DNA of 64,000 nucleotides from Bdellovibrio sp. (GCA_036676395.1 JAKFCY010000002.1:448001-512000); one strand, 5' to 3'. Counted from the first letter of the stretch, positions 5,428 through 43,940 are shown. Notes: generated from the letters alone by a model not told the origin. Numbers and translations are program-made.

Positions 5428-5799
5428 ATGAAGTCGAACTATACGTTCAAACATCTCGATTACTCTGAATCCCTGGTCAACTACACTAACGAGAAATTGG
5501 ACGAAATCGGTAAATTCTTGCTTAAAGAAGGACGTTGTACAGTTTATTACTGGAAGGACCATCACGAATTTCATTGTGAAGTGTCGATCAACTCTAAAGA
5601 AAAATTTTTTAAAGCTCATGGAACAGCTACCGACGTTTATGTCGCAGTTGATTTAATGATCGATAAAATGGAAAGACAATTCTTAAAAGTAAAAGAGATC
5701 TATCAAGATCATAAGAAATTTGATCTATCTAAAGAAGGTCGTATGAAAGAGATCAACGATCAAATGGAATACTTACCCAAAGGCCGCAAGGTCGCTTAG
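5428..5799 (+). CDS. hpf: Ribosome hibernation promoting factor (HPF/RaiA family)
   Basis: N-terminal TFKHLDYSESLVNYTNEKL and C-terminal DVYVAVDLMIDKMERQ pattern; AAGGAG RBS. Confidence 0.85.
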   Translation: MKSNYTFKHLDYSESLVNYTNEKLDEIGKFLLKEGRCTVYYWKDHHEFHCEVSINSKEKFFKAHGTATDVYVAVDLMIDKMERQFLKVKEIYQDHKKFDLSKEGRMKEINDQMEYLPKGRKVA

Positions 5800-5824
5800 G
5801 TCTAAATTGCAGAAACCAAAACCC

Positions 5825-5861
5825 AGCCCCGTCGGACCTAAAGCGAACGGGGCTTTTTTTT
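5825..5861 (+). terminator. Rho-independent terminator
   Basis: AGCCCCGT...ACGGGGCT stem followed by T-run. Confidence 0.8.
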
Positions 5862-5883
5862 AACCCAGGCTACGGGAATTTTC

Positions 5884-6438
5884 ATGCATATTAAGAATAT
5901 AATTCTGACAAGTTTAATCGTTATAACAGCCACAGTTTCGTATGCCACCGATACGCGCGATATCGGCGAACAAGAAGGTGAGTTTGTTGTTGAATTGCGC
6001 CAACGGTCTGTAGAAGATATGGCCGAATCAACGGATAAGACTCAAAAATACATTCTTATTGTCGGTCAAAATAAAGATCTGACTAAAGATGATCTTATAG
6101 CAATTAAAGACTGTGTACTAGAAGTCCCGGCCACTGAAAAAAATAAACTGCTTCAGATGTTTGATGCCGAAGGTTCAACGGTTAGTGCACTTGCAGATAA
6201 TCTTCAGGCGCTTGCTTGCCAGAATTTCACCGCAGAACGTGAAAAAAAGGATCAGGTCGCATCAGTAACAACACCAAATTTCACCGGACTAAATGACTTT
6301 ATCTCAGAACATATGTTTAAATGCATTGCCGATCAGGTTGATAAATCTAATTGGACAAAAGTTGAAGATCGCGGTTTTAAAATTCCCAATTCATATTCGT
6401 TAGAAACAATTAAAAGATATTGTCCCAAGGGTTCATAG
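5884..6438 (+). CDS. Hypothetical secreted protein
   Basis: 184-aa ORF with Sec-type signal peptide (VSYA|T) and 4 Cys. Confidence 0.65.
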   Translation: MHIKNIILTSLIVITATVSYATDTRDIGEQEGEFVVELRQRSVEDMAESTDKTQKYILIVGQNKDLTKDDLIAIKDCVLEVPATEKNKLLQMFDAEGSTVSALADNLQALACQNFTAEREKKDQVASVTTPNFTGLNDFISEHMFKCIADQVDKSNWTKVEDRGFKIPNSYSLETIKRYCPKGS

Positions 6439-6639
6439 CCTGAACTCGTCTTTATATCTACGGGGGCTTTTTTTGTCTCACTCTGAGATATTTAGCGCTC
6501 TTATTCACACAACATAATTATTGTAATGAAACATCGACTTGTTATTCGCTTGTCGCGACCAAAGGCCTAGTATTCTGTTATCAAGTTGCAGAGTGATCTG
6601 CATCAGAGAAGAATTAAGGTATTCACGAAGGAGTGTTAC

Positions 6640-7179
6640 ATGAAAAATTTAATTATGATTTGTTCTTTAGTATTAGTTGGTCAAATTGCAAATGCTGGTG
6701 GGTTTGTTGAGCCGTATATTGGTTATGCTAACAGCAAGCTTGAAGGTACATTCATTCCAGCTCTCGGTGGCACAAGTACTGAGTCAAAAGTTAAAGGACC
6801 TGTTTTAGGTTTACGTGCTGGTTATCAATTCGTATTGCCTTGGGTTGCATTAGAGGTCTCTCAATTTAACGGCGAAGATGATAGCAGTCCATCGAACGAT
6901 GTAAAAGGTACTGATATCGGCGTAACGGCTGGATTAAGCTTACCAATCGTACGCCCGTATGCAGGCTATGTTTTTTCATCTAAAACTGAAGTTGGGTCTA
7001 CTGAGTATACAGGTACAGCTATGAAAGTTGGCGTTGGTTTCGGATTCTTGCCATTAGTTCACTTAAATGTTGAGCTTATCAACACTGAGTTCAAAGAAAT
7101 TAATGGTAATGATATTGGCGTATTCTTTTCAGATCTTAAATCTAAAACGACAGCTTTCACAATCAGTTACGTATTCTAA
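6640..7179 (+). CDS. Small outer-membrane beta-barrel protein
   Basis: ATG 6640 after AAGGAG; signal peptide (ANA|G); alternating beta strands with G-x-Y patterns; C-terminal SYVF beta-signal. Confidence 0.8.
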   Translation: MKNLIMICSLVLVGQIANAGGFVEPYIGYANSKLEGTFIPALGGTSTESKVKGPVLGLRAGYQFVLPWVALEVSQFNGEDDSSPSNDVKGTDIGVTAGLSLPIVRPYAGYVFSSKTEVGSTEYTGTAMKVGVGFGFLPLVHLNVELINTEFKEINGNDIGVFFSDLKSKTTAFTISYVF

Positions 7180-7206
7180 TCTAAATTTGATTGCGAATTT
7201 AAAAAC

Positions 7207-7238
7207 AAAAAAGCCAGGCTCAACACCTGGCTTTTTTT
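7207..7238. terminator. Bidirectional intrinsic terminator
   Basis: AAAAAAGCCAGG...CCTGGCTTTTTTT between convergent genes. Confidence 0.85.
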
Positions 7239-7263
7239 ATTCCTAAAATCGAATTTCAAGAAA

Positions 7264-7731
7264 CTATTTAAAAATACAAGATAACGTGCGCTCATCACCA
7301 GCGATGTATTCAACGAAAGTAAGTTGTACTGAATCTTTAGAATTCTTCTCAATCTTAACATCTTGGTAGCTGTCAGAAAAATCCTGTTTAATTGTAATAC
7401 CTTTTTCAGTTTCACTAACGTTGAATAAGATATCGCTTACGTATTCTTCAAAAATTAAGGCTTGAGCATATTCATCAGCTGATGATTTCATCGAAAGCTC
7501 TTCTTCGCCGGTTTTAGTGTTAATTGCCAATTCGCAGGCATTACCTTCGGTAGACACGCCCTGTTGGATACCTTCAGGTAGGCCACCTTCACGTAATAGC
7601 TGCATGAGTTGGCTTTTGTTCAATAATTTATCGCTTGGAGTTGCATCTGCTGCAAAAGAAACAGAATTTACTCCATAAACTAAAGTTAAACTTACGGTAA
7701 GCGTTTTAAGCGTTTGGGCTAATATTTTCAC
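7264..7731 (-). CDS. Hypothetical secreted protein
   Basis: GTG start with AAGGAG RBS; signal peptide (SFA|A); two Cys. Confidence 0.65.
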   Translation of the reverse strand: MKILAQTLKTLTVSLTLVYGVNSVSFAADATPSDKLLNKSQLMQLLREGGLPEGIQQGVSTEGNACELAINTKTGEEELSMKSSADEYAQALIFEEYVSDILFNVSETEKGITIKQDFSDSYQDVKIEKNSKDSVQLTFVEYIAGDERTLSCIFK

Positions 7732-7914
7732 TCGAGAACTCCTTTGGGGTTAAGGTATTAAACACTGCCAAGATACTATGCAAAAACGGTTTTGGGTGGG
7801 AATACTGCAACCCTTGAAGAAAAGTTAGAACTGTCCAAACCTTAGACATTGATTCCGCTCTAAAAATGCAGTAATTTTCAATAGTTTTTAACGAAGTATA
7901 AGGAATAGAAAAAG

Positions 7915-9084
7915 ATGAAAAATTATATTTTTACTAGCGAGTCAGTTTCTGAAGGTCACCCAGATAAAATGGCGGATCAAATCAGTGATTCAATTCTTGA
8001 TGCTATCTTAGCGCAAGATCCGAAAGGCCGCGTTGCCTGTGAAACATTATTAACAACTGGTCTTATTGTTGTTGGCGGCGAAATTTCGACTTCTGCAAAA
8101 ATTAATTTTACAGATATCGCCCGTGATGCTGTTAGACGCATTGGTTATGATCACTCTGATAAAGGTTTTGATTACAAAACTTGTGCGGTGATGATTGCTG
8201 TTGGTCAACAGTCTCCAGATATCGCTCAGGGTGTTAAAGACACTGGTTCTGATGAACAAGGTGCTGGCGATCAAGGTTTAATGTTTGGTTATGCAACGAA
8301 TGAAACTCCTGAGTTCATGCCGTTATCTTTATCTTTATCTCACAAATTAGTTAAAGACTTAGCAGCGCTTCGTAAAGAAGGTCGCGTTAACTGGTTACGT
8401 CCTGATGCTAAATCTCAAGTTTCTATTCAGTATGAAAATGGAGTTGCTAAGCGTATTGATACAATCGTTTTATCTACTCAGCATGCTGATTCAGTTTCAA
8501 ATGCTGATCTTAAAGCTTTCATCATGGAAGAACTTGTTCAAAAATCTATTCCATCTAAATGGGTTGATAGCAAAACTAAATTTCACATCAATCCAACTGG
8601 CCGTTTCGTAACGGGTGGTCCGATGGGTGATGCAGGTCTTACAGGTCGTAAGATCATCGTAGATACTTACGGTGGTCACGGTGCCCACGGTGGTGGTGCA
8701 TTCTCTGGTAAAGATCCTTCTAAAGTAGATCGTTCAGCGGCATATGCTGCTCGTCACGTAGCTAAAAATATCGTAGCTGCTGGCTTAGCTGAGAAATGTT
8801 TAGTTCAGGTATCATATGCAATTGGTGTTGCTGAACCAGTTTCTATCGCCGTAAATGATTACGGAACTTCAGTTGTTGGATCTGAAAGATTAGCTGAAGC
8901 GGTTAAAAAAGTTTGGGATCTACGCCCATCTCGTATTGTAAAAGAATTTGATTTATTAAAACCAATTTATGTTCCGACAGCGGCTTATGGTCACTTCGGT
9001 CGCGAAGAAAACTTAGATAAAGGTTTCTTCTCTTGGGAAAAAGTAAACAAAATCGAACAACTAAAAGAAGCTGTAAAGTCTTAA
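7915..9084 (+). CDS. metK: S-adenosylmethionine synthetase
   Basis: [35 protein letters not shown]. Confidence 0.98.
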
Positions 9085-9108
9085 TGAGTATTGAGCCGGA
9101 GGCTTATT

Positions 9109-10917
9109 TTGAGTACAGATCCTAAGTACATTAGAAATTTTTCGATCATCGCCCACATCGACCACGGTAAATCTACTTTGGCCGATGCGCTGCTATCGTA
9201 TACGGGTTCATTATCTGACCGTGAACAGAAAGATCAATTTCTAGATAATATGGATCTTGAGCGCGAGCGCGGAATCACGATTAAGGCGCAAACTGTGTGC
9301 CTAAGTTACCGTTCAACGGTTGATAAACAATTGTATCAATTAAATTTAATCGATACGCCGGGGCACGTGGATTTCTCGTACGAAGTTTCTCGTTCTTTGG
9401 CAGCTTGTGAAGGCGCAATTCTAGTCGTTGATGCCGCACAAGGTGTTGAAGCGCAAACATTGGCTAACGTTTATTTAGCGTTAGAAAATAATTTAGAAAT
9501 TATTCCTGTTTTAAATAAAGTCGATCTTCCTACCGCTGATCCGGTGGGCGTAGCTAAACAAATCGAAGACACTGTTGGTCTTGATTGTACTGACATCGTG
9601 CACGCGTCGGCGAAAGAAAAGATCGGTATTGCTGAAATTCTTGAAGCGGTGATTGCAAAAGTTCCACCTCCTAAAGAAAATCGTTCTTCAATTTTACGCG
9701 GCTTAATTTTCGATTCATGGTTCGATGCTTATCAAGGCGTTGTAATCCTGGTGCGCGTAATGGAAGGCATGATCAAAAAAGGCGATAAAATTAAATTCAT
9801 GGCCACTGATCGTGATTATGAAGTTTTACGTATGGGTAAATACACTCCATTTCCAGATTTCGTTGATAATCTAGATTCAGGCGAAGTGGGCTTTATCATT
9901 TGCGGTATTAAAGATATTCGCGATGTTAAAGTGGGCGATACTGTGACATCGGCTAAAAATGGCGCGACTGAACAATTGCCTGGTTTCCAAAAAGTTAAAC
10001 CGATGGTTTTCGCAGGTATTTTTCCTGTCGTAGCCAGCGAATATCAAAACTTAAAAGATGCATTAGATAAATTATGTCTTAACGATTCTTCATTATCATT
10101 CGAAGTCGAAAAATCATTAGCTCTTGGTTTTGGATACCGTTGCGGCTTCTTAGGTCTTCTGCATATGGAGATCGTGCAAGAACGCTTAGAGCGCGAATTT
10201 AACTTAAATTTAATCACGACTGCTCCAACGGTTGTTTATCGTATTACTAAAAACGACGGCACTGTTTTAATGTTAGAAAATCCATCAGGAATGCCTGATG
10301 AAACGCAGATTCAGTTAATGGAAGAGCCTTATGTTAAAGTCACTCTCCATACGCCAACTGATTACATCGGAAGTCTTATCAAACTTTGTGAAGATAAGCG
10401 CGGTATTCAGCAAAGAATGGAATACGTAAACGAGAAAAAAGTGATCATTGAATATCATCTGCCGATGAATGAAATGGTTATGGATTTCTATGATCGTTTA
10501 AAATCAATTACTAAAGGTTATGCCTCATTAGAGTATGAATTTTTAGATTTCCGTGAAGCTGATCTGGTTAAGATGGATATCTTAATCAATAGCGAACCGG
10601 TTGATGCTTTATCTATTATTATTCACCGCTCTAAAGCTGTGACGCGTGGTCGTCAGCTAGCTGAAAAGATGAAAGAGCTTATCCCTCGTCAACAATACCA
10701 AGTGAATATTCAAGCTTCATTAGGAGCTAAGATTATTGCACGCGAGACATTAGGGGCCATCAGAAAAGACGTGACGGCGAAATGTTATGGTGGTGACATA
10801 TCTAGGAAGCGTAAATTATTAGAAAAACAAAAAGAGGGTAAAAAACGCATGAAGCAAATCGGCTCTGTCGATGTGCCTCAGGAAGCCTTCTTAGCAATTC
10901 TAAAAATCGAAGACTAG
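9109..10917 (+). CDS. lepA: Elongation factor 4
   Basis: [34 protein letters not shown]; probable TTG start 9109 after GGAGG. Confidence 0.97.
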
Positions 10918-28614: not shown

Positions 28615-28690
<76 letters not shown>

Positions 28691-28736
28691 AATCAAGACT
28701 TTAGATATTTTATTTAAAAATAAAATAAAAAAAGTA

Positions 28737-28766
28737 TTGACGAGGGTAACTCAACTGAATTACAAC
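28737..28766 (+). promoter_or_regulatory. Putative rRNA operon promoter with A-rich UP element
   Basis: TTGACG-N18-TACAAC preceded by A tracts; boxB-like hairpin and boxA-like TTCTTTGAAAA downstream (~28789-28835). Confidence 0.55.
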
Positions 28767-29047
28767 TGACGTCCTTGTAGAAATGAAAACGCTTAGCGAA
28801 AGCGAAGCAAATGTTAATGATCGGTTCTTTGAAAACTGAATAGCTAAAAGATTTTGGAACTAATAGAACAGCTACTTTAATGTAGCATCTAACGTAACCT
28901 TGGTTGCTTAGAGTAATATTATTAATTTCTAGGTTTCTTTATATATAAATGAAATCATTTAAAAACTAACGTTTTTATCTCAATGATTGTCATCTTCGGA
29001 TGGCAATACAAAAATGAACAGATTTTTAAACTTTTTTAGTTTTTTTT

Positions 29048-30558
<1,511 letters not shown>

Positions 30559-30662
30559 TTCGTGATCAGCACTTTGAATTTATTCAAAGAAAGCAATCAC
30601 TTCTCTTAGGTCAAACCAAAATCTTTTAATAGCTATTCAGTTTTGATGGAACTACTGGTCAT

Positions 30663-30739
<77 letters not shown>

Positions 30740-30988
30740 ACTAAGAAATTTTTCGTTCTTTGACAATTGAATATGTAAACTAAGAAGTTTCGAACAAATA
30801 TTTTCGGGAATTAAACCTAAAATATCGAAATGAAGTATAGAGTTTTTATTTGTATTAATTTTTTACTAAAAATGATCGCAAGATATTTTTGAGTAAAACA
30901 ATTATTTAATTTACGAATAGTTCATTGAACTAATTCAGTAGATTGTATTAATTGATTTTTAGCGAGGTTAGATTCATATATAATATAA

Positions 30989-33918
<2,930 letters not shown>

Positions 33919-33985
33919 AATAATTCTCGGTCGCAAGACCAAATTTCGAATCTAACGTAATCGCTAAAAATCAATTAATACAATT

Positions 33986-34103
33986 TGCTGGTGTCTATAG
34001 CAGAGAGGTCACACCTGATCCCATTCCGAACTCAGAAGTTAAGCTCTCTTGCGGCGATGGTATTGCACGGGTAACTGTGTGAGAGAGTAGCACGATGCCA
34101 GCT
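33986..34103 (+). rRNA. rrf: 5S rRNA
   Basis: CACCTGATCCCATTCCGAACTCAGAAGTTAAG core; GCTGG...CCAGC terminal stem. Confidence 0.97.
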
Positions 34104-34302: not shown

Positions 34303-35490
34303 ATGAAACTGAAACAACTTTACTATGCTCACGTCTTTTTGCTTTCCGCATTGGGCTCAGTCATAGCTTGTTCGCCAACTAAGTTTACTCCGGCAGTTGC
34401 TGTAAATGCAGACTGTACTACTGGGTGCGTGGTTAATCCTGATGGAACTAAAAAATGGGATGAAACACACAAAGTTGGAACGGGTAAGGTTGATATCTTA
34501 TTTGTTAATGATAATTCGGCTTCAATGTCAGTGGTTCAACATCGTTTAGCTCAAGCTTTTGGTGGATTTATCGAAAGACTTGATTCTCGCGAAATCGATT
34601 ATAAAATTGCAATGACAACAACTGATGCAACTAAGCTTTCTTCGACTCCATTATTATCTTTTGGCAATGGAACTACATTTTTAACCAAAGCTGATTCTAA
34701 TCGTGTTGCTCTTTTTAATGGTTCAATCGTTAGAACTGAAACTACAAATTGCGAAAATGTGATTAAATCTTTCTATAATACATATGGTCCTAGTTTTCAA
34801 ACTCGCAATGACTATGTTGCTGCTTACAATAATGCTTGTGCTTCAGGCGATGAACGTGGAATTTTAGCAGCTAACCATATTTTGAAAAATAATTCTGGTA
34901 GTTTTGTACGTGCAGATGCTCATTTAAATATTATTGTGATTTCAAATGAAGATGTTCGCAGTGGAAATACTGGATCTTTTACAACGGAAGATCGCGCGTC
35001 AAATTTAACTGCTACTGTTAACTCTGCTTTTGCGAGCAAATACTGGGAATTTAATTCAATTATTACTAAAGATGCGGTTTGTGCTCAGACGCAAAAATCA
35101 CAATTTAGAACTGCATCTGGCCAAGAAATCAAAGATCAGAACGGTAACTATGTAATTGGTGCTAACCCAGGTATAGAATACGCAGCTTTATCTGCATCTG
35201 CATCACAAGATATTGATGGTAATGCACAACCTCGCGGTCAAATTATTGATATTTGCCAAACGAACTACTCAGCTCACTTTAACAATATGGCAACCAAGGT
35301 TGCGGACTCTGCTCGTATGTTCAATTTAAAATGTAATCCTGCAGTAGCGCCAATAGTTGAAATCGTTGGTAACCCAGCGGCGACAGTTCCGCACACTTGG
35401 AATGGAAATCACATCGTGTTCAACCGTGGCTCTGAAGGTATTAATGTTCGCGTAAAATACAACTGTCCACAAACAGGTGGAGTTCAGTAA
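34303..35490 (+). CDS. Lipoprotein with vWA-like (MIDAS) domain
   Basis: Lipobox VIAC; DILFVNDNSASM (DxSxS); IAMTTTD; IIVISNED; several Cys. Confidence 0.7.
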   Translation: MKLKQLYYAHVFLLSALGSVIACSPTKFTPAVAVNADCTTGCVVNPDGTKKWDETHKVGTGKVDILFVNDNSASMSVVQHRLAQAFGGFIERLDSREIDYKIAMTTTDATKLSSTPLLSFGNGTTFLTKADSNRVALFNGSIVRTETTNCENVIKSFYNTYGPSFQTRNDYVAAYNNACASGDERGILAANHILKNNSGSFVRADAHLNIIVISNEDVRSGNTGSFTTEDRASNLTATVNSAFASKYWEFNSIITKDAVCAQTQKSQFRTASGQEIKDQNGNYVIGANPGIEYAALSASASQDIDGNAQPRGQIIDICQTNYSAHFNNMATKVADSARMFNLKCNPAVAPIVEIVGNPAATVPHTWNGNHIVFNRGSEGINVRVKYNCPQTGGVQ

Positions 35491-35551
35491 GAAACAGCAT
35501 AATGGATAAAGTTATCCATTGAGTCATCGCAAAATTATTCTAAGTTCGATC

Positions 35552-35582
35552 AAAGAGCGTCTTAAGTTGAGACGCTCTTTTT
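35552..35582 (+). terminator. Intrinsic terminator
   Basis: AAAGAGCGTC...GACGCTCTTTTT. Confidence 0.75.
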
Positions 35583-35619
35583 ATTTTTGCTAATTACTCT
35601 CGTAAAATTCATAAAAAAT

Positions 35620-35647
35620 TCAATTTTACGAATTCAACAACCGATCA
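35620..35647 (+). promoter_or_regulatory. Putative sigma28-type promoter, probably leaderless transcript
   Basis: TCAA-N16-ACCGATCA ending 8 nt before ATG 35656. Confidence 0.45.
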
Positions 35648-35655
35648 TTTGTCAT

Positions 35656-36345
35656 ATGGCAATGGTAGACAGATACAAAAAATCAGGTGGCTTCATTCAA
35701 CTATTACAAGTTATTGAAACTTGTGGTCCTAAAAAGCGTGAGCAATTTATGAAAATCATAAATGAGGAAACTCCAAGATGGGGAGAAGCGATCGTAGCTA
35801 AAATGCTAAGCTTTGAAAAAATTCTTTCGTGGAAGCCAGAAGCCATCATGGAAATTACAGCACAAATGAATCCATTAGCTTTTGGTACAGCTTTAAAATC
35901 GTTACCTCAAGAGAAGTTCGATGAGTTTGCGGCGAAGCTTGGTCCTCAAGAGCGTCGTAAGTTCGAACAACTTTATAAAGAAGGTACTCCTGCGCCGAAT
36001 GAAATTTCTGCGTGCTTAGTGAAAGTGATTAATGAAACTCGTTTGTTATTCGCAGCAGGTACATTAAAATTTGATAAGATTGATCCTGATCTAACTATTC
36101 CTGACGAAATCGAAAGTAAATTAGAAAAAGGCAGCTTAGGAAGCGGTCCATCTTCTGGTGGTAATCGTACGGCTGAAGATGTAGTTAAAGAAGCTTCCGC
36201 TTCTTCAGGTATCCAATTAGGTAACCCGAATGAGGTCGATTCTTTACGTCGGAAAATTGTTGAGCTCAATAACGTGGTGATGGCTCTTAAAAAAGACAAC
36301 ACCTCGATGAAAGATAAGCTCGATAAAATCAAAAAGATCGCTTAA
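35656..36345 (+). CDS. FliG C-terminal-domain-like protein with C-terminal coiled coil
   Basis: Helical pattern MLSFEKI...IMEI...ALKSL resembling the FliG C-domain; terminal heptad repeat; start inferred at MAMVDRY. Confidence 0.5.
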   Translation: MAMVDRYKKSGGFIQLLQVIETCGPKKREQFMKIINEETPRWGEAIVAKMLSFEKILSWKPEAIMEITAQMNPLAFGTALKSLPQEKFDEFAAKLGPQERRKFEQLYKEGTPAPNEISACLVKVINETRLLFAAGTLKFDKIDPDLTIPDEIESKLEKGSLGSGPSSGGNRTAEDVVKEASASSGIQLGNPNEVDSLRRKIVELNNVVMALKKDNTSMKDKLDKIKKIA

Positions 36346-36369
36346 ATAGCTTTATTTTGTAGCAACGTT

Positions 36370-36395
36370 AAAGAGAGGCGCCTAGCCTCTCTTTT
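36370..36395 (+). terminator. Intrinsic terminator
   Basis: AAAGAGAGGC-GCCTA-GCCTCTCTTTT. Confidence 0.8.
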
Positions 36396-36567
36396 GCTTT
36401 TTGAGGGCTTGAAGAGCCATTTATGGAGCTTCTAGAGGCTAAAAGCTTGGCAAATCAGCTAACCCGACGAATTCAAACTTAAAATTGGGTGGAATTTTAG
36501 CTTTTGCTGCGAATTATTTGACAACACAAGCCTGTCAGGATTAATTTGTTTCTTCTTACGAAGTCGT

Positions 36568-36644
<77 letters not shown>

Positions 36645-36689
36645 ATTATTAAAAATCCCAAAAAAATCAATAGCTTAAAAATCCCAGAT

Positions 36690-36960
36690 CCATTTACCCT
36701 GCTTTACCCCTGCCGCTTTTTATTTTTCCCTAAAGATTTAACAACATTATCAAATGTAGATCGATCTCGTTGAGCATTTACCATTTTTGTTTTCACACTT
36801 GAGTTACAAGATGTTGCTGTGAAATAGTTAAGTCGCCAGTCATATTTAAAATCTCTTTAGTGCCTCCGTGACGTAAGATATGCGTGCCGGTGTAGTCGAA
36901 GCCAGCTTTCTTATATGCAGTCGTGTAGATGTTGTAGGCCACTTTGTATTTCAAAGTGTT
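36690..36960 (-). pseudogene. Tyrosine recombinase/integrase C-terminal remnant
   Basis: Minus-strand translation AYKKAGFDYTGTHILRHGGTKEILNMTGDLTISQQHL, then after a 1-nt frameshift NSSVKTKMVNAQRD; HxLRH motif at 36868-36882; Asn at the expected catalytic Tyr position. Confidence 0.8.
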
Positions 36961-36981
36961 TCTTATGTGATGACCTAAGAA

Positions 36982-38262
36982 TTAATCGTCCACCAGTGGA
37001 ATCCGAATTTCAATATTAGTTCCAACGCCTATTTTGGATTGGATCGCCAAAGTCCCGCCGGCACTTTCTAAAGTTTTTCGTGCATGAAAGATGCCGAGAC
37101 CATTACCTGCAGCTTTTGAGTCTTGCTTTCCGAAGCTAATTTCGCGAGACCCAAGTACTTCTAAGATATGATCAGGAATTCCTATTCCATTATCCATAAT
37201 TGAAATGAGAGCAAGCTTATCAAAATATCTCAGGTTAACTCTAACTTCACCGACTGACTCAATGGATTCAATAGCGTTGTTTAAAATGTTGGACAAAATT
37301 CGACCGATATCTCCATCGTTAATATTTGTCGAAACAAGTTTGGCGTCTAGGTCCAAGCTTAGCTGGATTTTGTTCCCAACTAAGCCTTGCGCTTCTTTTT
37401 CTTTAGCTATGTTACTAATGATTTGATCGAGCTGTGAGTGTCCGTTGGCTTGAGTACTTTGATAACGCTCACTTCGCGATTTTGCATTGTTTAGCAAATC
37501 ATCTGCAATTTGATTAATTCTATTAACAGAGTTTTCTATAAGTTCTTTTTGTTCGTGCGGCAGACTGTTATCTAAAGTGCTCAATACGACATTTAATGTA
37601 GAGAGTGGAGATCGAATATCATGTGCCACTTGCTTACTTAAAGAAACGATTGCCTTATCTTTTTCTACAGCGATTGCTTGTTGTTGGTAAGCTTTAAAAC
37701 GATCTGCCATCTCCCAAGCTAAAGCCCAAGCGGCAGAAAAATTTAACGATAATGGATGTGGAATATTCGCTGTGGAAAATAGTTTTTTAAAAGACAGAAC
37801 CATTTCGGAGCTTAAGTATCTTAAAACTATTATCGAAATAAAAATTATACCTACAAAACAAAGTGAAACGACTTTTAAAAAATCCCAGGGTATCGGATTT
37901 GGTCTGCAAAAATCTATGTCGAACTCAAAATACTGCTGAGTAACACACTGTCCGTCGGCTTGAAGTTTTTTATTTCCGCTTACGAATCTATCGGGATTGT
38001 TTAGCTCAGAAATAGCTACATAATATTCTTCATCCTTAAGTGATATCTTTTGAGTGAAGTCTCGTTTGTTTGTGCTTTTTAAGTAATGTCCATTCCCTTC
38101 TAAAATTAGACGGAACTCATAGTTAACTAGATCTTTATTTTTTTGATTAGTAATAGAGATGATACCGAAAACAGTGATGGCAAAAAGTATGATAGCTGTG
38201 GAGATGATGACACCCGAAATTAATTCAGGATTTACGCGAGTTAGGCGAGAGGATGAGGCCAT
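36982..38262 (-). CDS. Membrane sensor histidine kinase
   Basis: Two TM helices around a ~90-aa periplasmic domain; H-box VAHDIRSPL; N-box NILNNAIES; DNGIG; GNGLGI. Confidence 0.93.
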   Translation of the reverse strand: MASSSRLTRVNPELISGVIISTAIILFAITVFGIISITNQKNKDLVNYEFRLILEGNGHYLKSTNKRDFTQKISLKDEEYYVAISELNNPDRFVSGNKKLQADGQCVTQQYFEFDIDFCRPNPIPWDFLKVVSLCFVGIIFISIIVLRYLSSEMVLSFKKLFSTANIPHPLSLNFSAAWALAWEMADRFKAYQQQAIAVEKDKAIVSLSKQVAHDIRSPLSTLNVVLSTLDNSLPHEQKELIENSVNRINQIADDLLNNAKSRSERYQSTQANGHSQLDQIISNIAKEKEAQGLVGNKIQLSLDLDAKLVSTNINDGDIGRILSNILNNAIESIESVGEVRVNLRYFDKLALISIMDNGIGIPDHILEVLGSREISFGKQDSKAAGNGLGIFHARKTLESAGGTLAIQSKIGVGTNIEIRIPLVDD

Positions 38263-39167
38263 GAATTTATTCCTTTAATAGATTGAGTGCCCCAAGTTAA
38301 TTTATCCCAAGCAGGATTTGATGCGTATGCAACGGCAGGAAAATTTTGTGCTGGGGTCAATAAATTGATACTTATTTTATCTAGATTAAACAACTTTACT
38401 GGTGCTTTTGTAAAATCACCCTTTATTAAAAACTGAAAGGCTTCTAAATTTGCAGGTACCGAATAAAACTGTCTGTGGTCTTCAGGAATACCAACTGATG
38501 GCAATTTGACTGAGTCGACAATTTTTTGAAAATAAGAATTTTTCGCTAAAGAGATTAACAGTTTTTCTTCAGCGAGGTCGTTAAGAAAGCATGAATCAAA
38601 AATTGCTCCTAATTGTTTATGAATTATGAAACAAGTTAATACGTTGCCGGCACTGGAACTGACTTCGAACATGTAGGTTTTCCAACCATTTAAAGCCAAG
38701 CCAACACACAAAAGCTTATTTTTAAAACGTTGTACTTTAACTTTTTTCCAACCCGTTTTTTGCTGCCATGCTTGAATCAAGACGGCACGCTCTATAAGTT
38801 CTTCTCTAGATTTTTCTTGAGCCATAGAGTTAGTAGCACCAGCAGCAAATCCATTTGAGTTTTCCACTTGTGAAAAAGCAGGATTGCTACTATTTAAATG
38901 CTTTAACCACAGTCTTTCCCAAGCTTCTGCAAAAGCTTTTTGCATGGCTTTTAAATTAGATCGGTCAACACTATGGCCGATAGCTGTTTGATTAAATCCG
39001 CTAATTGTACATTCGTAAAAGTTAAAAGGAAAAAGGCCACCTGTATATTGGGCAAACTCCCAAACGATGGGAACCGTAAAACCATTTGAATCCTTCAATA
39101 AAGAAGTTTTGGACATCAGAAAATCTAGATCCCCAGGCCAGGTGAAATTATTTTCGGCGTAGGTCAT
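38241..39167 (-). CDS. YcaO-family protein (compact)
   Basis: KAFAEAWER (ExxER), NSNGFAAG followed by ELIER, C-terminal WPHPLA (PxP tail); probable start MTYAENN overlapping the upstream gene. Confidence 0.78.
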   Translation of the reverse strand: MTYAENNFTWPGDLDFLMSKTSLLKDSNGFTVPIVWEFAQYTGGLFPFNFYECTISGFNQTAIGHSVDRSNLKAMQKAFAEAWERLWLKHLNSSNPAFSQVENSNGFAAGATNSMAQEKSREELIERAVLIQAWQQKTGWKKVKVQRFKNKLLCVGLALNGWKTYMFEVSSSAGNVLTCFIIHKQLGAIFDSCFLNDLAEEKLLISLAKNSYFQKIVDSVKLPSVGIPEDHRQFYSVPANLEAFQFLIKGDFTKAPVKLFNLDKISINLLTPAQNFPAVAYASNPAWDKLTWGTQSIKGINSWPHPLA

Positions 39168-40554
39168 AAATACGAATTCGAGCGTCAAATTGATTCCAGT
39201 TAGAGGCATCGATATTTTCGCTTAACAAATATCGTTGTGTTCCAGTCATAAAAGGAATGGCGATAATTTTTCTCAGAATCGTTTCATGAAGGTTTAGCAG
39301 ATGTTGTTGTCGATTTTTTAGATCAACAGCATTAAATACTTGATCGTATTCTTTTTGAAAATTTACGCTCCAGGTGCTGAGTTGTCCAAACGGAGGGCTA
39401 GCTAAAAATGACCACGAGCCAGAAGCATCCTGTTGATTGCCTAAAAAAGAATAAACTCCTGCAAATTCATCATTATTAAAGGTCAAGCGATCTGTGTATT
39501 CAAACTCAGCCTTGATGTCATGATCTAAAAAAATCTGCTGCATTTTTTCTGTTAATTTTGGCATTTCTTTAAAGTTTGCACCTAATCTTATTTTGATAAT
39601 CAAAGTTGAAATGGCTTTTAATGGCTTTACATTCGGAGTGACATTTAAGCGCCCGTTGAAGCCCTTAGGGATCATCTGATCTTCCAGGAATAGTGAATTA
39701 TCAGGATCCGTTAACACCGAGACATAATCTCTGATTTCTTTTATAGCAGAAGCAAAAATTTGTCTGTTATTAATATCAAGGGCTTGTTTGTCTTGAGAAT
39801 TAAAGTGGAAAAATGTAATACTCATGGGATGCGATGACCAGATCTGTCTTGCGTTTGGTAAAACCATTTTTGTGTTTTTTAGGCTTGCTGCTGCGACGAT
39901 AGGAACAACATCGAAATGAATAGTTTTAAAAATCTGATTTCTTAAAGAAGGGTCCTTTAATTGTGTTAAAACAGCACTCATCGGCATTTCATCATTAAAG
40001 AGTGGGGAAAGTTTATTTGCAGAAAGCAATAGGGCACGTTCTGCATAGTTCCATGACTCAACAAAGTATGGTCCGACCGTTTTTGACCAACCAACCGTTT
40101 TATAATTAGAAGGGAACAAGCCTGAGTCTGCTAAAGAAAGCTCGTGAAGAATAGTAGTATCCATTTCAATTGGAAAATGAATTTTTAAAACACGCTCAGC
40201 TTCTAAAAACGTCACCTTATCAGCTAAGCTTAAATATTTAATATGCCTTTTGCTTCCAGTTCGAAGTGATTCTATCCATCCTAAAATTTCTTCTGAAGTA
40301 ACAGGGGTCCCATCAGACCATTTTCTTTGTGGCAAATGAAACACCCAAGTTTTTGGATCTTCTTGATAAAACCGATCAGCAAGACACCCTTCATAACCTG
40401 TCGCTGAAAACTTAGAATCTCGCACCAGTCCACAAGAAATATTTTCAAGTAAGTAATATTCCCAAATAGTTTCTGTATTATCGGGATCAAGGAGAGCTGG
40501 GGTTTCCTTTAGAAGCACAACTGGGAATAAAATTTTTATTGATGGCTTAGACAT
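39148..40554 (-). CDS. Family-5 (OppA/DppA-like) solute-binding protein without obvious signal peptide
   Basis: LDP...LADRF...WVFHL...KWSDGTPVTSEEI signature; TVGPY; C-terminal IPF; AAGGA RBS. Confidence 0.8.
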   Translation of the reverse strand: MSKPSIKILFPVVLLKETPALLDPDNTETIWEYYLLENISCGLVRDSKFSATGYEGCLADRFYQEDPKTWVFHLPQRKWSDGTPVTSEEILGWIESLRTGSKRHIKYLSLADKVTFLEAERVLKIHFPIEMDTTILHELSLADSGLFPSNYKTVGWSKTVGPYFVESWNYAERALLLSANKLSPLFNDEMPMSAVLTQLKDPSLRNQIFKTIHFDVVPIVAAASLKNTKMVLPNARQIWSSHPMSITFFHFNSQDKQALDINNRQIFASAIKEIRDYVSVLTDPDNSLFLEDQMIPKGFNGRLNVTPNVKPLKAISTLIIKIRLGANFKEMPKLTEKMQQIFLDHDIKAEFEYTDRLTFNNDEFAGVYSFLGNQQDASGSWSFLASPPFGQLSTWSVNFQKEYDQVFNAVDLKNRQQHLLNLHETILRKIIAIPFMTGTQRYLLSENIDASNWNQFDARIRIYDLRRK

Positions 40555-40635
40555 AATTTCCTTTTTAACAAAGATAGCAAAAAAAAATGCTATAGTTAAA
40601 AAAAAACTGCTAAAGATGATTTTAGCCTAGGAGTT

Positions 40636-40857
40636 TTAATCATTTTTTTTAATCGCTGTACAGTCCGTCGGTCCACAGTTTACGAGCGCACTATTTTCTT
40701 TCAAGTCTTTAATATCTATTTTTTTAATGTCGTTAACCTGATTTTTTTTATGTTCAGTTTTTAAGTCTTGGTTAATTGGACCAATTTGCAATTTAAATGC
40801 AGATGCTGTTCCAGCAAACATCACAATCGAACCAAGTAAAGATAAAAGCATTTTCAT
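40636..40857 (-). CDS. Small secreted peptide, putative RiPP/signal precursor (73 aa)
   Basis: AAGGGG RBS then MKMLLSLLGSIVMFAGTASA| signal peptide, charged spacer, C-terminal SALVNCGPTDCTAIKKND; first gene of the operon. Confidence 0.7.
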   Translation of the reverse strand: MKMLLSLLGSIVMFAGTASAFKLQIGPINQDLKTEHKKNQVNDIKKIDIKDLKENSALVNCGPTDCTAIKKND

Positions 40858-41122
40858 AAATAGCCCCTTTTTTGTCAAAAAATACCACGCTGTTGCCAGA
40901 TTTTCCATATTCATTTCGTTAGTAAGTCTTAAAATAGAAAACTATTTACTTTTTACAATTAAATCCGGTTATCGGATTTATGTATGAGTAATTTTGTTGT
41001 GGCAGCCGCTATAAAAGACTGTCTATAAGGATTGAGTCAGAGTTTGCTCATCTCAATCAGGATCCAAACAACTTAAGTACTAACTAGCTGACTTTACTTG
41101 TTATTTATTCTCAAAATAGGAC

Positions 41123-41152
41123 TTTACTTAGGTGTACACCAAGTGGTACTAT
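41123..41152 (+). promoter_or_regulatory. TA operon promoter with palindromic operator
   Basis: TTTACT-N18-TACTAT with a GTGTACAC palindrome in the spacer, resembling the TGTACA core of YefM-type operators. Confidence 0.5.
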
Positions 41153-41171
41153 CTAAATTAGAGGTATTTAT

Positions 41172-41429
41172 ATGCAAAATACAAATCCAAAACAATTTCG
41201 TGCTGAAATGAAAGATTACCTAGAGCTTGCAGCTAAGGAACCTATCCGCATTCAGCGTCGTGCCGGTGATTCTTATATCTTAGTTAAAGAAGAAGCTTAT
41301 CAAGAAATGCAGAACGAGATTTTATCTCTGCAAAGACGCTTACTTGGTATGTCACAGGCTGTTTCTGGACAGACTCAAGAATATAAAATTGGTGATCGAT
41401 CTAGATTAAAAAGACTTACACGAAAGTAA
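41172..41429 (+). CDS. Phd/YefM-family antitoxin
   Basis: N-terminal FRAEMKDYLELA..EPIRIQR..SYILV pattern; 85 aa; precedes a toxin-sized ORF. Confidence 0.8.
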   Translation: MQNTNPKQFRAEMKDYLELAAKEPIRIQRRAGDSYILVKEEAYQEMQNEILSLQRRLLGMSQAVSGQTQEYKIGDRSRLKRLTRK

Positions 41430-41432
41430 TCT

Positions 41433-41768
41433 GTGACCAAATTTATTTTAACAGACCAGTACAATAGCTCACTTGAGCGTATTGAAGACCATATTCTTAC
41501 AACAGCAGATATTTCTCATGTAGAAAAGTTCTTAGATGAACACGATCGCTTATTAAAGTTTATCGAACAAAACCCTGCAACTGCCGCAGTTCATCCACTC
41601 ACAGGAGACCAAACTTGGGTCTTTGCTAGTGGGCGATATCGCGTATTTTATAAAGCTGTTGATATTAGTGCCACGCTAACAATCTTCATGACCGATATTA
41701 TCGACAATCGTGAATTAAATAAGAAAATCTATCCTGCGAATAGTATTCCGACTTACGATGAAGATTAG
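41433..41768 (+). CDS. RelE/ParE-like toxin
   Basis: 111 aa, 3 nt downstream of the antitoxin; RYRVFY...IFMTDIIDNR pattern. Confidence 0.65.
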   Translation: MTKFILTDQYNSSLERIEDHILTTADISHVEKFLDEHDRLLKFIEQNPATAAVHPLTGDQTWVFASGRYRVFYKAVDISATLTIFMTDIIDNRELNKKIYPANSIPTYDED

Positions 41769-41929
41769 AAATTTTTAAAAGCGCAGTGAGTTGATAAAAC
41801 TCATTTACCCCTGCCGAACATGCACCTCGATAGATTTTAGTGGATTTTCGTGGACCTCGACATCTTCTAAGTTGTTGATGACACTGAAATCCGTAATCTT
41901 TTTAAGAGCTTGAAACAGGGGTGTAAGAG

Positions 41930-41950
41930 CCTATCGCCCCGACCAATTAT
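41930..41950 (+). repeat. att direct repeat, right copy
   Basis: CCTATCGCCCCGACCAATTAT. Confidence 0.92.
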
Positions 41951-42056
41951 CTAAAATATTTCATTTTACAAACTACATAAAAGCCTAAGTCGCAAAATTT
42001 ATAGCTAAATTTTTGTTATATTCGATAGCTAAAACTCGAGAGCTGATTCAATAAAA

Positions 42057-43940
42057 TTATTGTAAACGTAGTTTCTTACGAAAATACCAAATCAATAAAT
42101 TCTTTGAATAGTTTTGATCTAAGTTTTTTTCTGACAACGCATTAGAACTTTCAGCCACACGTAATGAAATCATAAATGAGATCGTAAGATTTAATAGGCC
42201 AGTTACGACAACTCCAAGTAAGGCCAAATAAATCGCTGGCTCAGAAAAAATTCCAAAGCCTAACGTATAAATGGCTGCAGCAAGTGTTCCCGAGGATAGC
42301 GTAACATGGCGAACATCTATTGGCAGACCTAAAAATTCTCCCATGATTGGAACAATTCCAAGTGTAAAACCAAGAGCCGCATTTCCACAAAGTGCGCCAA
42401 AATTATTTTTTATAAAATTCACCCAGGCTGCTTTTTTTACATGCGACAGAAATGGAAATATTTTTGGTGAGTTCATAATGATTTCATCAAACTTGTAAAC
42501 CTTAAAAAAGTTATCTGCAGCTCCCGTGATGAAAGTTGAAAACCATAAAATATAACCCGTAAGGAAAGCATAAAATGGTGTAAAACTAAAAATAGACATG
42601 GAGGCGATTTGCGCCTGAGCTTTTTCAGCACTCATAAAGCTCTGACTAAATACAATTTGGGATAGGAACGAAATGAGTAATACTGTAGGTATAACAATTC
42701 CTACATTGCCCAGCACAGCCAAGAACTGAGATTTAAATACGGAATCAATTTCAGCTAAAATCTCTTTTTTCGATAATTTATCCCATTGATAATTTAAATG
42801 CGCCGCGATTGCTGCCGGTTGTTTGGTGGCTAAAGTAAAACCTAATAAGTAAATAACGATAAAACTTAAGGCGTAATTTAAACTGTAAATAAAGCCCAGC
42901 AGAAATGGCGCTACATGCAAATACGATGAAAGGGTTTTTAATAAAACAGTGAATCCAGTGATAAAGCCGCCACCACAAGCGCTGGTAAAAAGTTTGGTGA
43001 TCGCCTGACGTGAACGGCCGACATAATAGTCACCTTTTTCTGCGCTGGTGAGCGATACGACCTCAATAAGTTGGCTGCTGTAATGAAAAAATTGAAATTT
43101 AAGAGAATAGAAGTTTTTTCGTTCAATAAGAATAGCGGCCAAATATTTAAAACTAAAACCGTCATAAAGTTTTATTAAATTTTGGAGTCTAATTAGCCGT
43201 GATTTTACTTTTTTAATTCGAAATAGTGAATTTAGCTGGACACCAGTTTCGCGAAAATCATCAACGATTGAATCGATGCCCTTCAAATTGTTTGCAGTTA
43301 ACTGGATAAGTAATTCTGTATCTCTGATCTCTGTGAGGCTAATAACTTGCAGTGTTTTTACAAAGTCTGAATTAAATTTACCAGAGGATGTCATTTTAAA
43401 GACCGATGAATAAATGTCGGACATGTTTTTGTTAGCCAGAATATAAATGGCCCGTATTAAAGACTGTCTGATTTCATTTTTTAAATAAATGATTTTATCA
43501 GGCGGGAAGTAGCTAAGAATTTTGTTAAGTTGAGATTGGTCTACATTTAAAGATTCATCAAAGTGAAAATCCAGCTGTAACGCCTCATCAACTAAATGCG
43601 AAATTTCACAGTCATTCGATGGAACAGTTATAAATTTTTGACAAAACGCCCAAATCACTTCGTGAATAAATGAGTCTGATTCGCCACTGAAGGTATGCAC
43701 CAGCAGCGAATCAAATTGTATGTTCTCAATAAAAACCAGCCATTGCTGGACAAAAACCTCTCGAAACAATGGGTCTTTTTCAAGTAAATTATTGAGGTCA
43801 TCAATTCTTTGATTAAGAGTAGTTTTACCATTGGTGTTTAATAACCAAGTGGCAAACATAATGTACCAATTCCAATCCCACTCTTTGCCCTGATGTGTTC
43901 CGAACGAAAGTAATTCAGGCAGGCTTATTTTTTGAGACAT
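42057..43940 (-). CDS. Multi-TM protein of the family commonly labelled 'putative site-specific recombinase' (SpecificRecomb/Gcr-like)
   Basis: GDYY, SACGGG, SLNYA, FTLATKQPA, DVRHVTLSSG motifs; hydrophobic C-terminal half. Confidence 0.75.
   Translation of the reverse strand: MSQKISLPELLSFGTHQGKEWDWNWYIMFATWLLNTNGKTTLNQRIDDLNNLLEKDPLFREVFVQQWLVFIENIQFDSLLVHTFSGESDSFIHEVIWAFCQKFITVPSNDCEISHLVDEALQLDFHFDESLNVDQSQLNKILSYFPPDKIIYLKNEIRQSLIRAIYILANKNMSDIYSSVFKMTSSGKFNSDFVKTLQVISLTEIRDTELLIQLTANNLKGIDSIVDDFRETGVQLNSLFRIKKVKSRLIRLQNLIKLYDGFSFKYLAAILIERKNFYSLKFQFFHYSSQLIEVVSLTSAEKGDYYVGRSRQAITKLFTSACGGGFITGFTVLLKTLSSYLHVAPFLLGFIYSLNYALSFIVIYLLGFTLATKQPAAIAAHLNYQWDKLSKKEILAEIDSVFKSQFLAVLGNVGIVIPTVLLISFLSQIVFSQSFMSAEKAQAQIASMSIFSFTPFYAFLTGYILWFSTFITGAADNFFKVYKFDEIIMNSPKIFPFLSHVKKAAWVNFIKNNFGALCGNAALGFTLGIVPIMGEFLGLPIDVRHVTLSSGTLAAAIYTLGFGIFSEPAIYLALLGVVVTGLLNLTISFMISLRVAESSNALSEKNLDQNYSKNLLIWYFRKKLRLQ

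Follow-up and report, generated by a model that had tools for sequence, protein, structure and literature searches.

A mobile four-gene cassette of Bdellovibrio pairs a minimal YcaO with a putatively secreted Asn-Cys peptide, a family-5 binding protein and a sensor kinase: a candidate peptide-signalling module

A 64,000-nt stretch of DNA from Bdellovibrio sp. (GCA_036676395.1 JAKFCY010000002.1:448001-512000), called here the window at its full length, was analysed, and four open reading frames (ORFs) within 36982-40857 were found to form a cassette encoding a small precursor peptide, a family-5 solute-binding protein (SBP), a minimal stand-alone YcaO enzyme and a sensor histidine kinase (HK). 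We propose, with modest confidence, that the YcaO modifies the amide of an Asn-Cys pair in the peptide, probably to a thiazoline, that the peptide leaves the cell by Sec, and that the SBP and the kinase sense it. The observations carrying this proposal are the gene content, the YcaO fold and its motifs, the synteny of the genes, the invariant Asn-Cys pair, the signal peptides of the precursors and of most SBPs, and the mobility of the island in which the cassette resides. A sequence-only reading of the same DNA had suggested that one cassette makes and senses a modified peptide in a quorum-sensing-like circuit. On the fold, the synteny and the Asn-Cys pair, making and sensing by one cassette stands as the best-supported reading and is still conditional, whereas quorum sensing is unproven.

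The four genes were confirmed as intact reading frames, all on the minus strand (Table 1), and were co-oriented as the sequence-only reading had described them. The SBP and YcaO genes overlapped by 20 nt and the YcaO and HK genes by 22 nt, which agrees with the overlap of about 20 nt given earlier for the last three genes, and a spacer of 81 nt separated the peptide gene from the SBP gene. Alternative starts were noted for the peptide (a 92-aa frame from 40914) and for the YcaO gene (an upstream ATG at 39209). By ORF reading and Pfam, the 5.3-kb island encoded no E1 partner, no recognition element (RRE) of the kind used for peptides that ribosomes make and that are modified after translation (RiPPs), and no TfuA, dehydrogenase, exporter or protease. 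Neither the island nor the flanks of related loci held ABC permease and ATPase genes for the SBP. Apart from the four cassette genes only a Phd/ParE pair was present in the island, and the absences claimed in the sequence-only reading, including that of a response regulator, therefore hold.

The claim of a YcaO-like protein was examined at the level of the fold with Foldseek and VIA-align, and a YcaO fold with intact nucleotide and Mg motifs was found. The AF2 model of the window protein (pLDDT 94.3, pTM 0.90) matched seven different YcaO proteins at a Foldseek probability of 1.0, and YcaO proteins only. In VIA-align the closest structure was McbD (Z 19.6; root-mean-square deviation 3.6 Å over 266 residues, model residues 14-308), followed by LynD (Z 17.8), MusD (Z 17.4), M. 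kandleri YcaO (Z 16.9), M. jannaschii YcaO (Z 16.0), E. coli YcaO (Z 14.5) and TruD (Z 12.1). The YcaO matches, at Z 12-19.6, extended over residues 3-308, and unrelated folds trailed at Z about 7. As modelled, the protein contains an entire YcaO domain, about 100 residues shorter than is usual. The nearest structures were azoline-forming cyclodehydratases, with a margin of merely 2-3 Z units over the thioamide-forming archaeal YcaOs (Z 16-17). An alignment of 44 members of the family (A1) showed E81, E84 and R85 (AEAWER), G106-G110 (SNGFAAG), E123 and R127 (ELIER), D191, P304 and P306 to be invariant and E126 of ELIER nearly so. Both ExxER motifs and the SNGxAxG of the family profile aligned with their counterparts in TruD and in the M. 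jannaschii YcaO (MJ1094), and the ExxER motifs reportedly serve in ATP/Mg binding. Since the enzyme has no signal and requires ATP, it is placed in the cytoplasm. Its family C-terminus reads W-P-H-P-L-A, in which the two invariant prolines are retained and the third Pro of PxPxP is absent; a preprint describes a PxPxP C-terminus as typical of azoline-forming YcaOs (bioRxiv 10.1101/2025.07.11.664356).

Database searches delimited the family. A word-indexed search of 5.8 billion proteins returned 53 clusters, mostly without names and with lengths that nearly all fell within 290-330 aa. When 1.84 billion representatives were searched with the profile, 126 proteins passed E<=1e-30, 268 passed E<=1e-10 and 1802 passed E<=1e-3; with 126 members at the strictest threshold, the YcaO family is small but real. 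The close homologues among the matches listed were about 300 aa long and unfused. The closest YcaO homologues (P0001-P0004) were 72-91% identical and came from other samples. The host genome was also searched for accessory functions, in an assembly that is 99.3% complete and with control genomes that matched in each search. No TfuA (PF07812), no SagB-type dehydrogenase and no second YcaO was matched in it. Because no dehydrogenase was found, an azoline rather than an azole is expected; by gene content the product would be such an azoline, or a TfuA-independent thioamide.

The peptide gene is preceded by a ribosome-binding site (aagggg) 8 nt before its ATG at 40857. Judged by eye, the N-terminus of the peptide, with a Lys, a hydrophobic core and then TASA/FKL, is a Sec-type signal peptide, and behind it come a middle part rich in Lys and the C-terminal core, ...VNCGPTDCTAIKKND, that holds the Asn-Cys. 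The peptide had no Pfam, NCBIfam or PHROG match, and BLAST with it retrieved none of the precursors of other loci. A precursor census was taken over the 19 distinct loci in which the sequence extended at least about 150 nt upstream of the SBP gene. At 17 of the 19, a same-strand small ORF with a hydrophobic, signal-like N-terminus (masked by N in one case) ended 0-95 nt before the SBP gene, and every one of these 17 carried an Asn-Cys dipeptide 4-14 residues from its C-terminus. C-terminal fragments include ...LVNCGPTDC... in the window, ...DSNCGGSI in L010, ...GLNCTGGGGTSC... in L009, ...LDNCIHGGSC... in L019, ...DSNCNECSC... in L023, ...IDNCTGGGSSC... in L057 and ...AGNCGIGG... in L063. The precursors could not be aligned apart from Asn-Cys, their cores being very short and variable. 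The small ORF had been proposed as part of the operon, and its conserved position together with the invariant Asn-Cys sustains that proposal.

Azoline formation requires a Cys, Ser or Thr in the adjacent precursor core, and this residue is present as the Cys of Asn-Cys. A lone conserved X-Cys junction answers precisely to the need of a cyclodehydrating YcaO for a Cys next to the activated carbonyl, and the conserved Asn before it could be a recognition determinant or a participant in the chemistry. An Asn-Cys junction is also the C-terminal cleavage site of inteins. The YcaO MusD is able to cut a peptide bond (PMC10885120). The conserved pair also bears on an alternative in which the YcaO acts on a protein, be it the SBP, the kinase or some other protein of the host, in the way that E. 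coli YcaO acts on uL16, and the small ORF encodes an unrelated accessory protein, secreted or in the membrane. Stand-alone YcaOs with protein substrates are documented (PMC13063428, PMC5589413), and no leader-recognition domain is present in the cassette. However, Asn-Cys is the sole pair kept in otherwise hypervariable small ORFs, a pattern that marks a site of modification or recognition, and the closest folds are peptide cyclodehydratases; we consider a protein substrate decidedly unlikely.

Scans with the YcaO alignment yielded 12 loci from one genome per species and 8 loci from JGI metagenomes. In a sample of the phylum, 24 of 401 genomes matched the alignment at E<=1e-15 and 12 of the 24 reached E<1e-30, and 20 regions were taken from this sample. 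The loci were examined by BLAST and hidden Markov models with the window proteins and two alignments. Within the close family, genes for SBP5, YcaO and HK stood side by side in 22 distinct loci, the window included (L007, L009-L015, L017, L019, L022-L026, L054, L057-L060 and L063), and the trio was cut by contig ends at two further loci (L008 with L006, and L018). The usual order was SBP-YcaO-HK with overlaps of roughly 20 and 22 nt retained, for example in L012 and in L010 (SBP 5527-6996, YcaO 6977-7933, HK 7912-10161), and the SBP/YcaO overlap was about 20 nt in nearly all loci. The kinase gene was divergently oriented in L014, L054, L058 and L063. The carriers were largely Bdellovibrionota; the labels of their metagenome-assembled genomes also included Elusimicrobiota (four), Armatimonadota and a 'Deltaproteobacteria'/Myxococcota bin, which amounts to at least four phyla. 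Since the same set recurs across loci, the arrangement is far beyond chance, and the association of YcaO with SBP5 and HK suggested by the sequence-only reading extends across Bdellovibrionota and into other phyla.

The flanks of the related loci contained no E1/ThiF-like protein, dehydrogenase, exporter or dedicated protease, and nothing was conserved in them beyond the trio and the small ORF; the flanking genes varied and included EF-Tu, LepA, transposases (e.g. L010), HipA (L009), BREX and a resolvase. In a more distant family of paralogues, which matched the profile at E 1e-17 to 1e-21, 9 of 10 loci carried the trio, at times ordered YcaO-SBP-HK, and the precursors encoded in front of it had Ser/Thr/Gly-rich C-termini without Asn-Cys. 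In the paralogous cassettes L064-L073 and L003-L005, YcaOs of about 320-360 aa were accompanied by SBP5, HK and a small ORF with a signal peptide. With the window protein as query, homologues were found in 5 of 61 relatives, and the single one among 36 genomes within the genus was a distant paralogue. Degraded copies were also seen: L061 (G351) and L062 (G124) held a stop-broken YcaO and a lone 189-aa YcaO fragment, the YcaO ORF of L014/L056 (G249) was truncated to 224 aa, and L054 (G231) had an Asn-Arg precursor.

The binding protein had been called a family-5 peptide-binding protein, and its SBP5 signature was confirmed through the homologues and through profile A2, which matched the structures of OppA, MppA, NikA, AgaA and SapA (best 2.7e-15). 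The N-termini of the SBPs of 24 other loci were inspected, and each showed either a signal peptide or an N-in anchor. With the cytoplasmic YcaO, the Sec-like precursors and the external kinase loop, these SBPs outline the familiar arrangement in which a periplasmic binding protein offers its ligand to a kinase. In the window SBP, residues C40 and C57 form a pair whose members were both present in Bdellovibrionota-type proteins and both replaced in Elusimicrobiota-type proteins; the pair may form a disulfide, which would be odd for signal-less variants.

The sensor kinase of the window, described earlier as a protein with two transmembrane (TM) segments, matched Pfam HisKA (2.3e-7) and HATPase_c (1.6e-16), both above cut-off, as well as NCBIfam HK models, and its N and G boxes were confirmed. 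Two TM segments were recognized by eye in the translation, on either side of an external loop of roughly 90 aa. Among 17 cassette kinases (alignment A3), R67, the external-loop residues C106 and C119, H214 of the H-box, N325, N329 and the G boxes were invariant in 17/17, and the loop Cys pair fits a predicted disulfide in an oxidizing, extracytoplasmic compartment. The kinases of more distant cassettes were longer (530-750 aa) and had C-terminal extensions that by eye resembled divergent receiver domains. One or two such extensions, with a DDD...D...T...K pattern, were seen in L010:7912-10161, L011:7912-9957, L012:7930-9966, L008:814-2547 and L017:5291-7060, and Pfam Response_reg matched them at E 5e-6 in L011 and 0.07 in L008. 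A search of the window's own genome for a counterpart of the receiver domain of these hybrid kinases gave matches at E about 0.14 only. NtrC-type activators (REC and Sigma54_activat) adjoined the cassette in 4 of 17 loci (L057:471-1826, L063:4279-5658, L069:131-1570 and L072:103-1479), and with a receiver protein beside L068 (7506-8000) a regulator neighboured the cassette in 5 of the 17 loci examined. These neighbours may supply the output that the kinase family otherwise lacks.

In a scan for the sigma-54 -24/-12 consensus, 5 of 22 loci, where about 1 was expected, had GG-N10-GC elements matching at least 8 of 11 positions within 200 nt upstream of the precursor; two of these loci are close kin. 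The window had a near-match upstream of its peptide gene (Table 1). We regard sigma-54 control as a weak lead only. A promoter and terminator scan of 36600-42000 returned counts equal to those of shuffled sequences, and the idea of an attenuator, a hairpin with a T-run after the peptide gene, was dropped because it scored no better than shuffles (z -0.92).

In the mechanism that we propose, the precursor would be made with a Sec signal peptide that doubles as the RiPP leader, and the cytoplasmic, ATP-dependent YcaO would activate the Asn-Cys backbone amide before or during export. The likeliest outcome would be cyclodehydration to an Asn-derived thiazoline (-18 Da). The peptide would exit through Sec and signal peptidase I would cut off the leader, which would explain the absence of a dedicated exporter and protease. 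Outside the cytoplasm, the OppA-like SBP would capture the modified C-terminal core and hand it to the two-TM kinase at its external, disulfide-containing loop. The kinase would then phosphorylate an unlinked regulator, or in related cassettes a fused receiver or a neighbouring NtrC-type activator. The chemistry, the export, the binding and the signalling logic (autoinduction) are what we infer from the observations above.

Several findings weigh against this mechanism, and the first concern the receptor. The window SBP begins at the first beta-strand of the mature domain and so lacks a signal peptide, a lipobox and an anchor; nor does the 81-nt spacer leave coding room for an N-terminal extension. 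By eye, 21 of 41 database SBP clusters had no hydrophobic N-terminus, and by hydropathy the same was true of 19 of the 48 rows of alignment A2. In a quick tree the export-signal trait had changed at least 5-8 times. A cytoplasmic SBP is unable to meet an external kinase loop, and periplasmic sensing is therefore not straightforward in the window's genome. All members of the clade of the window SBP, to an identity of roughly 57%, are among the signal-less SBPs, and the signal-less form is maintained in relatives down to about 44% identity. Intact over such deep divergence, they are suggested to be working proteins, possibly inside the cell, and their persistence keeps alive the view that the SBP is the peptide-holding partner of the YcaO. 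According to that view SBP5 acts as an intracellular recognition partner that replaces an E1-like protein or RRE and holds the precursor core, and the kinase just regulates the operon and responds to another cue, or senses the peptide directly. The overlap of the SBP and YcaO genes in nearly all loci is in its favour, as is the need of most azoline-forming YcaOs for a peptide-binding partner (PMC5589413, PMC4603692), where none is otherwise found here. On the other hand, the signals or anchors of the SBPs of the 24 other loci place these proteins mostly outside the cytoplasm and away from an ATP-dependent enzyme, and C40 and C57, jointly present or jointly absent, hint at a disulfide. We give the intracellular partner a small but appreciable chance.

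To the signal-less SBP must be added points that concern the enzyme, the substrate and the output of the proposed sensing mechanism. Pfam YcaO (PF02624) scored the window protein at E 1.2e-3 (18.7-18.8 bits, below the cut-off of 25.7), and Pfam SBP_bac_5 (PF00496) scored the window SBP at E 1.6e-6 (27.9 bits, below the cut-off of 32.4). Both calls were rescued because the homologues match better: each of the 44 family members matched the YcaO model at E<=0.01, the best of them at 7e-16, and the SBP homologues reached 71-81 bits, above the cut-off. No partner or RRE for substrate recognition was present in the island or in the related flanks, and the window protein is a single YcaO domain. The differences in Z between azoline-type and thioamide-type structures are small, so that either chemistry may apply. 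We know of no precedent for a cytoplasmic YcaO that acts on a Sec substrate before export. Two loci depart from the precursor pattern: L054 has Asn-Arg at the place homologous to the Asn-Cys of its near relative L058, and L014 has no upstream candidate, with a 31-aa ORF ending in ...LLTNCTA located behind its kinase gene. As to the output, the island encodes no response regulator, the window kinase lacks a receiver domain, and among 12 sigma-54 activator genes in the window's genome not one is distinctive as a cognate regulator.

The cassette was traced to a mobile element. An island of about 5.3 kb, comprising the four cassette genes and the Phd/ParE-like pair, is bounded by two 28-bp direct repeats that are identical at 26 of 28 positions (Table 1). 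In G018, a genome of the same genus (L079 = G018:C4), 34427-36656 and 41930-43415 were matched contiguously at 95% identity, and the single repeat copy common to both alignments marks a precise empty site; a 76%-identical relative, G209, was also without the insert. A metagenome contig of 5495 nt covered exactly 36607-41952. The cassette is therefore a horizontally acquired mini-island in tRNA-Pro that moves as a unit, a feature that the sequence-only reading had not noticed, and its patchy occurrence and the frequent toxin-antitoxin, transposase or recombinase neighbours elsewhere fit horizontal spread. No integrase was detectable in the island by Pfam or PHROG. A 53-aa ORF at 36796-36954 looked integrase-like by eye and was rejected as an integrase remnant, having no Pfam or PHROG match, and a metagenome joint from 36656 to 42070 (run X6), with just 39 letters on one side, was superseded by the empty site in G018. 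The 627-aa protein matching PF10136 lies outside the island and belongs to the conserved chromosome, since it adjoins the empty site in G018.

Table 1. Positions of the cassette, its island and neighbouring features in the window
Feature	Position	Strand	Description
Sensor histidine kinase gene	36982-38262	-	426 aa; two TM segments; HisKA and HATPase_c; no receiver domain
Minimal stand-alone YcaO gene	38241-39167	-	308 aa; both ExxER motifs, SNGFAAG, C-terminal WPHPLA
Family-5 (SBP_bac_5-like) solute/peptide-binding protein gene	39148-40554	-	468 aa; without signal peptide or anchor
Precursor peptide gene	40636-40857	-	73 aa; Sec-type signal peptide and C-terminal Asn-Cys core
Sigma-54-like -24/-12 near-match, TGGCAA-N5-TGGTA	40883-40898	-	GG-N10-GT, not GC; 25 nt upstream of the peptide ATG
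tRNA-Pro	36568-36644		
attL	36629-36656	+	left 28-bp direct repeat (family D1); overlaps the tRNA-Pro 3' end
attR	41930-41957	+	right 28-bp repeat copy; right end of the island
Phd/YefM-like antitoxin gene	41172-41429	+	Pfam PhdYeFM_antitox 5.7e-6, just below cut-off; PHROG antitoxin match
ParE/RelE-like toxin gene	41433-41768	+	Pfam ParE_toxin 1.3e-4, just below cut-off; PHROG RelE-like match
Protein gene outside the island	42057-43940	-	627 aa; PF10136 'site-specific recombinase' E 8e-104; multi-pass membrane look
rRNA operon (tRNA-Ala, 16S, tRNA-Ile, 23S, 5S), then an unannotated 395-aa ORF and a 252-aa protein	28615-34103 and 35587-36345		weak FliG_C match of the 252-aa protein

One alternative is that the cassette in the window's genome is a decaying passenger that no longer signals. 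Such decay would account for the lack of a detectable integrase, the signal-less SBP and the missing linked response regulator, and copies elsewhere are indeed degraded (L061, L062 and the truncated YcaO of L014). The four intact reading frames, the persistence of the signal-less form down to about 44% identity and the YcaO homologues of 72-91% identity elsewhere argue the other way, and we regard a decayed cassette as unlikely.

Another alternative is a secreted azoline peptide for antimicrobial or predatory use, in which case the SBP and kinase would protect the producer or let prey or competitors induce the cassette, and would not serve self-sensing. Antibiotics are numerous among YcaO products (PMC7136475, PMC10128002), and the cassette is mobile, lies beside toxin-antitoxin genes and is hosted largely by Bdellovibrionota. 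Yet no conserved immunity transporter, exporter or further tailoring enzyme accompanies it, the very short cores vary everywhere but at Asn-Cys, and the tight coupling of SBP, YcaO and HK is typical of sensing modules, not of bacteriocin loci. An antimicrobial role has, in our estimate, a slender chance.

The cassette was compared with known systems. It shares with McbBCD (microcin B17) and LynD/TruD the YcaO fold over the whole domain, the two ExxER motifs, SNGxAAG, a C-terminus rich in Pro and a Cys directly behind the carbonyl that is presumed to be the target. It differs from them in that its YcaO has 308 aa instead of about 400 and is without an E1-like, Ocin-ThiF or RRE partner, dehydrogenase, protease or exporter, and in that it has an apparent Sec signal leader, one conserved target site, and a link to an SBP and a kinase instead of immunity genes. 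The YcaOs of M. kandleri and M. jannaschii, which serve McrA thioamidation, and that of E. coli are compact, stand-alone and partner-less like the cassette YcaO and are the top Foldseek matches, but they act on large proteins and make thioamides, whereas the cassette has a dedicated secreted Asn-Cys peptide and no sulfur-transfer partner. With agr AIP/AgrC and nisin/NisK the proposed circuit would share the logic of an encoded, modified and exported peptide that is sensed by a histidine kinase, and with LuxP-LuxQ and TorT-TorS that of a periplasmic binding protein passing its ligand to a kinase. Unlike those signalling systems, the cassette uses a YcaO, apparent Sec export, an OppA-like receptor without permease and an unlinked, fused or NtrC-type regulator, and its hosts are diderms. 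The island resembles other tRNA-gene genomic islands in its insertion at a tRNA 3' end, direct repeats, empty site and toxin-antitoxin pair, and departs from them in measuring merely 5.3 kb and having no recognizable integrase.

A literature search found no published description of the four-gene combination, in keeping with the earlier statement that it was not recognized from any characterized cluster, and the 2015 landscape paper on thiazole/oxazole-modified microcins (TOMMs) mentions neither 'histidine kinase' nor 'Bdellovibrio'. We view the cassette as a variation on RiPP maturation and on binding-protein-assisted two-component sensing, in which the partner-less YcaO of about 300 residues and the use of a signal peptide as leader stand out. 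It is possible, and we suggest it only tentatively, that the cassette is the founding example of a new class of pheromones, defined by a Sec leader, a partner-less YcaO of about 300 aa that makes one backbone modification at the invariant Asn-Cys, and an SBP that serves a kinase without a transporter, in a 4-5 kb cassette shared across phyla.

If the proposed mechanism is true, a new chemical type of peptide signal, YcaO-modified and Sec-exported, would be added to the diderm bacteria, in which little is known of signalling by peptides. A YcaO of about 300 residues would then be able to function without a known partner or recognition element, and family-5 binding proteins would gain a role as co-receptors of kinases. 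The minimal enzyme and its one-site substrate would offer a model for substrate recognition by YcaO proteins and a compact tool for editing peptide backbones. Bdellovibrio-like and other uncultured bacteria would own a portable module for sensing other cells or the environment.

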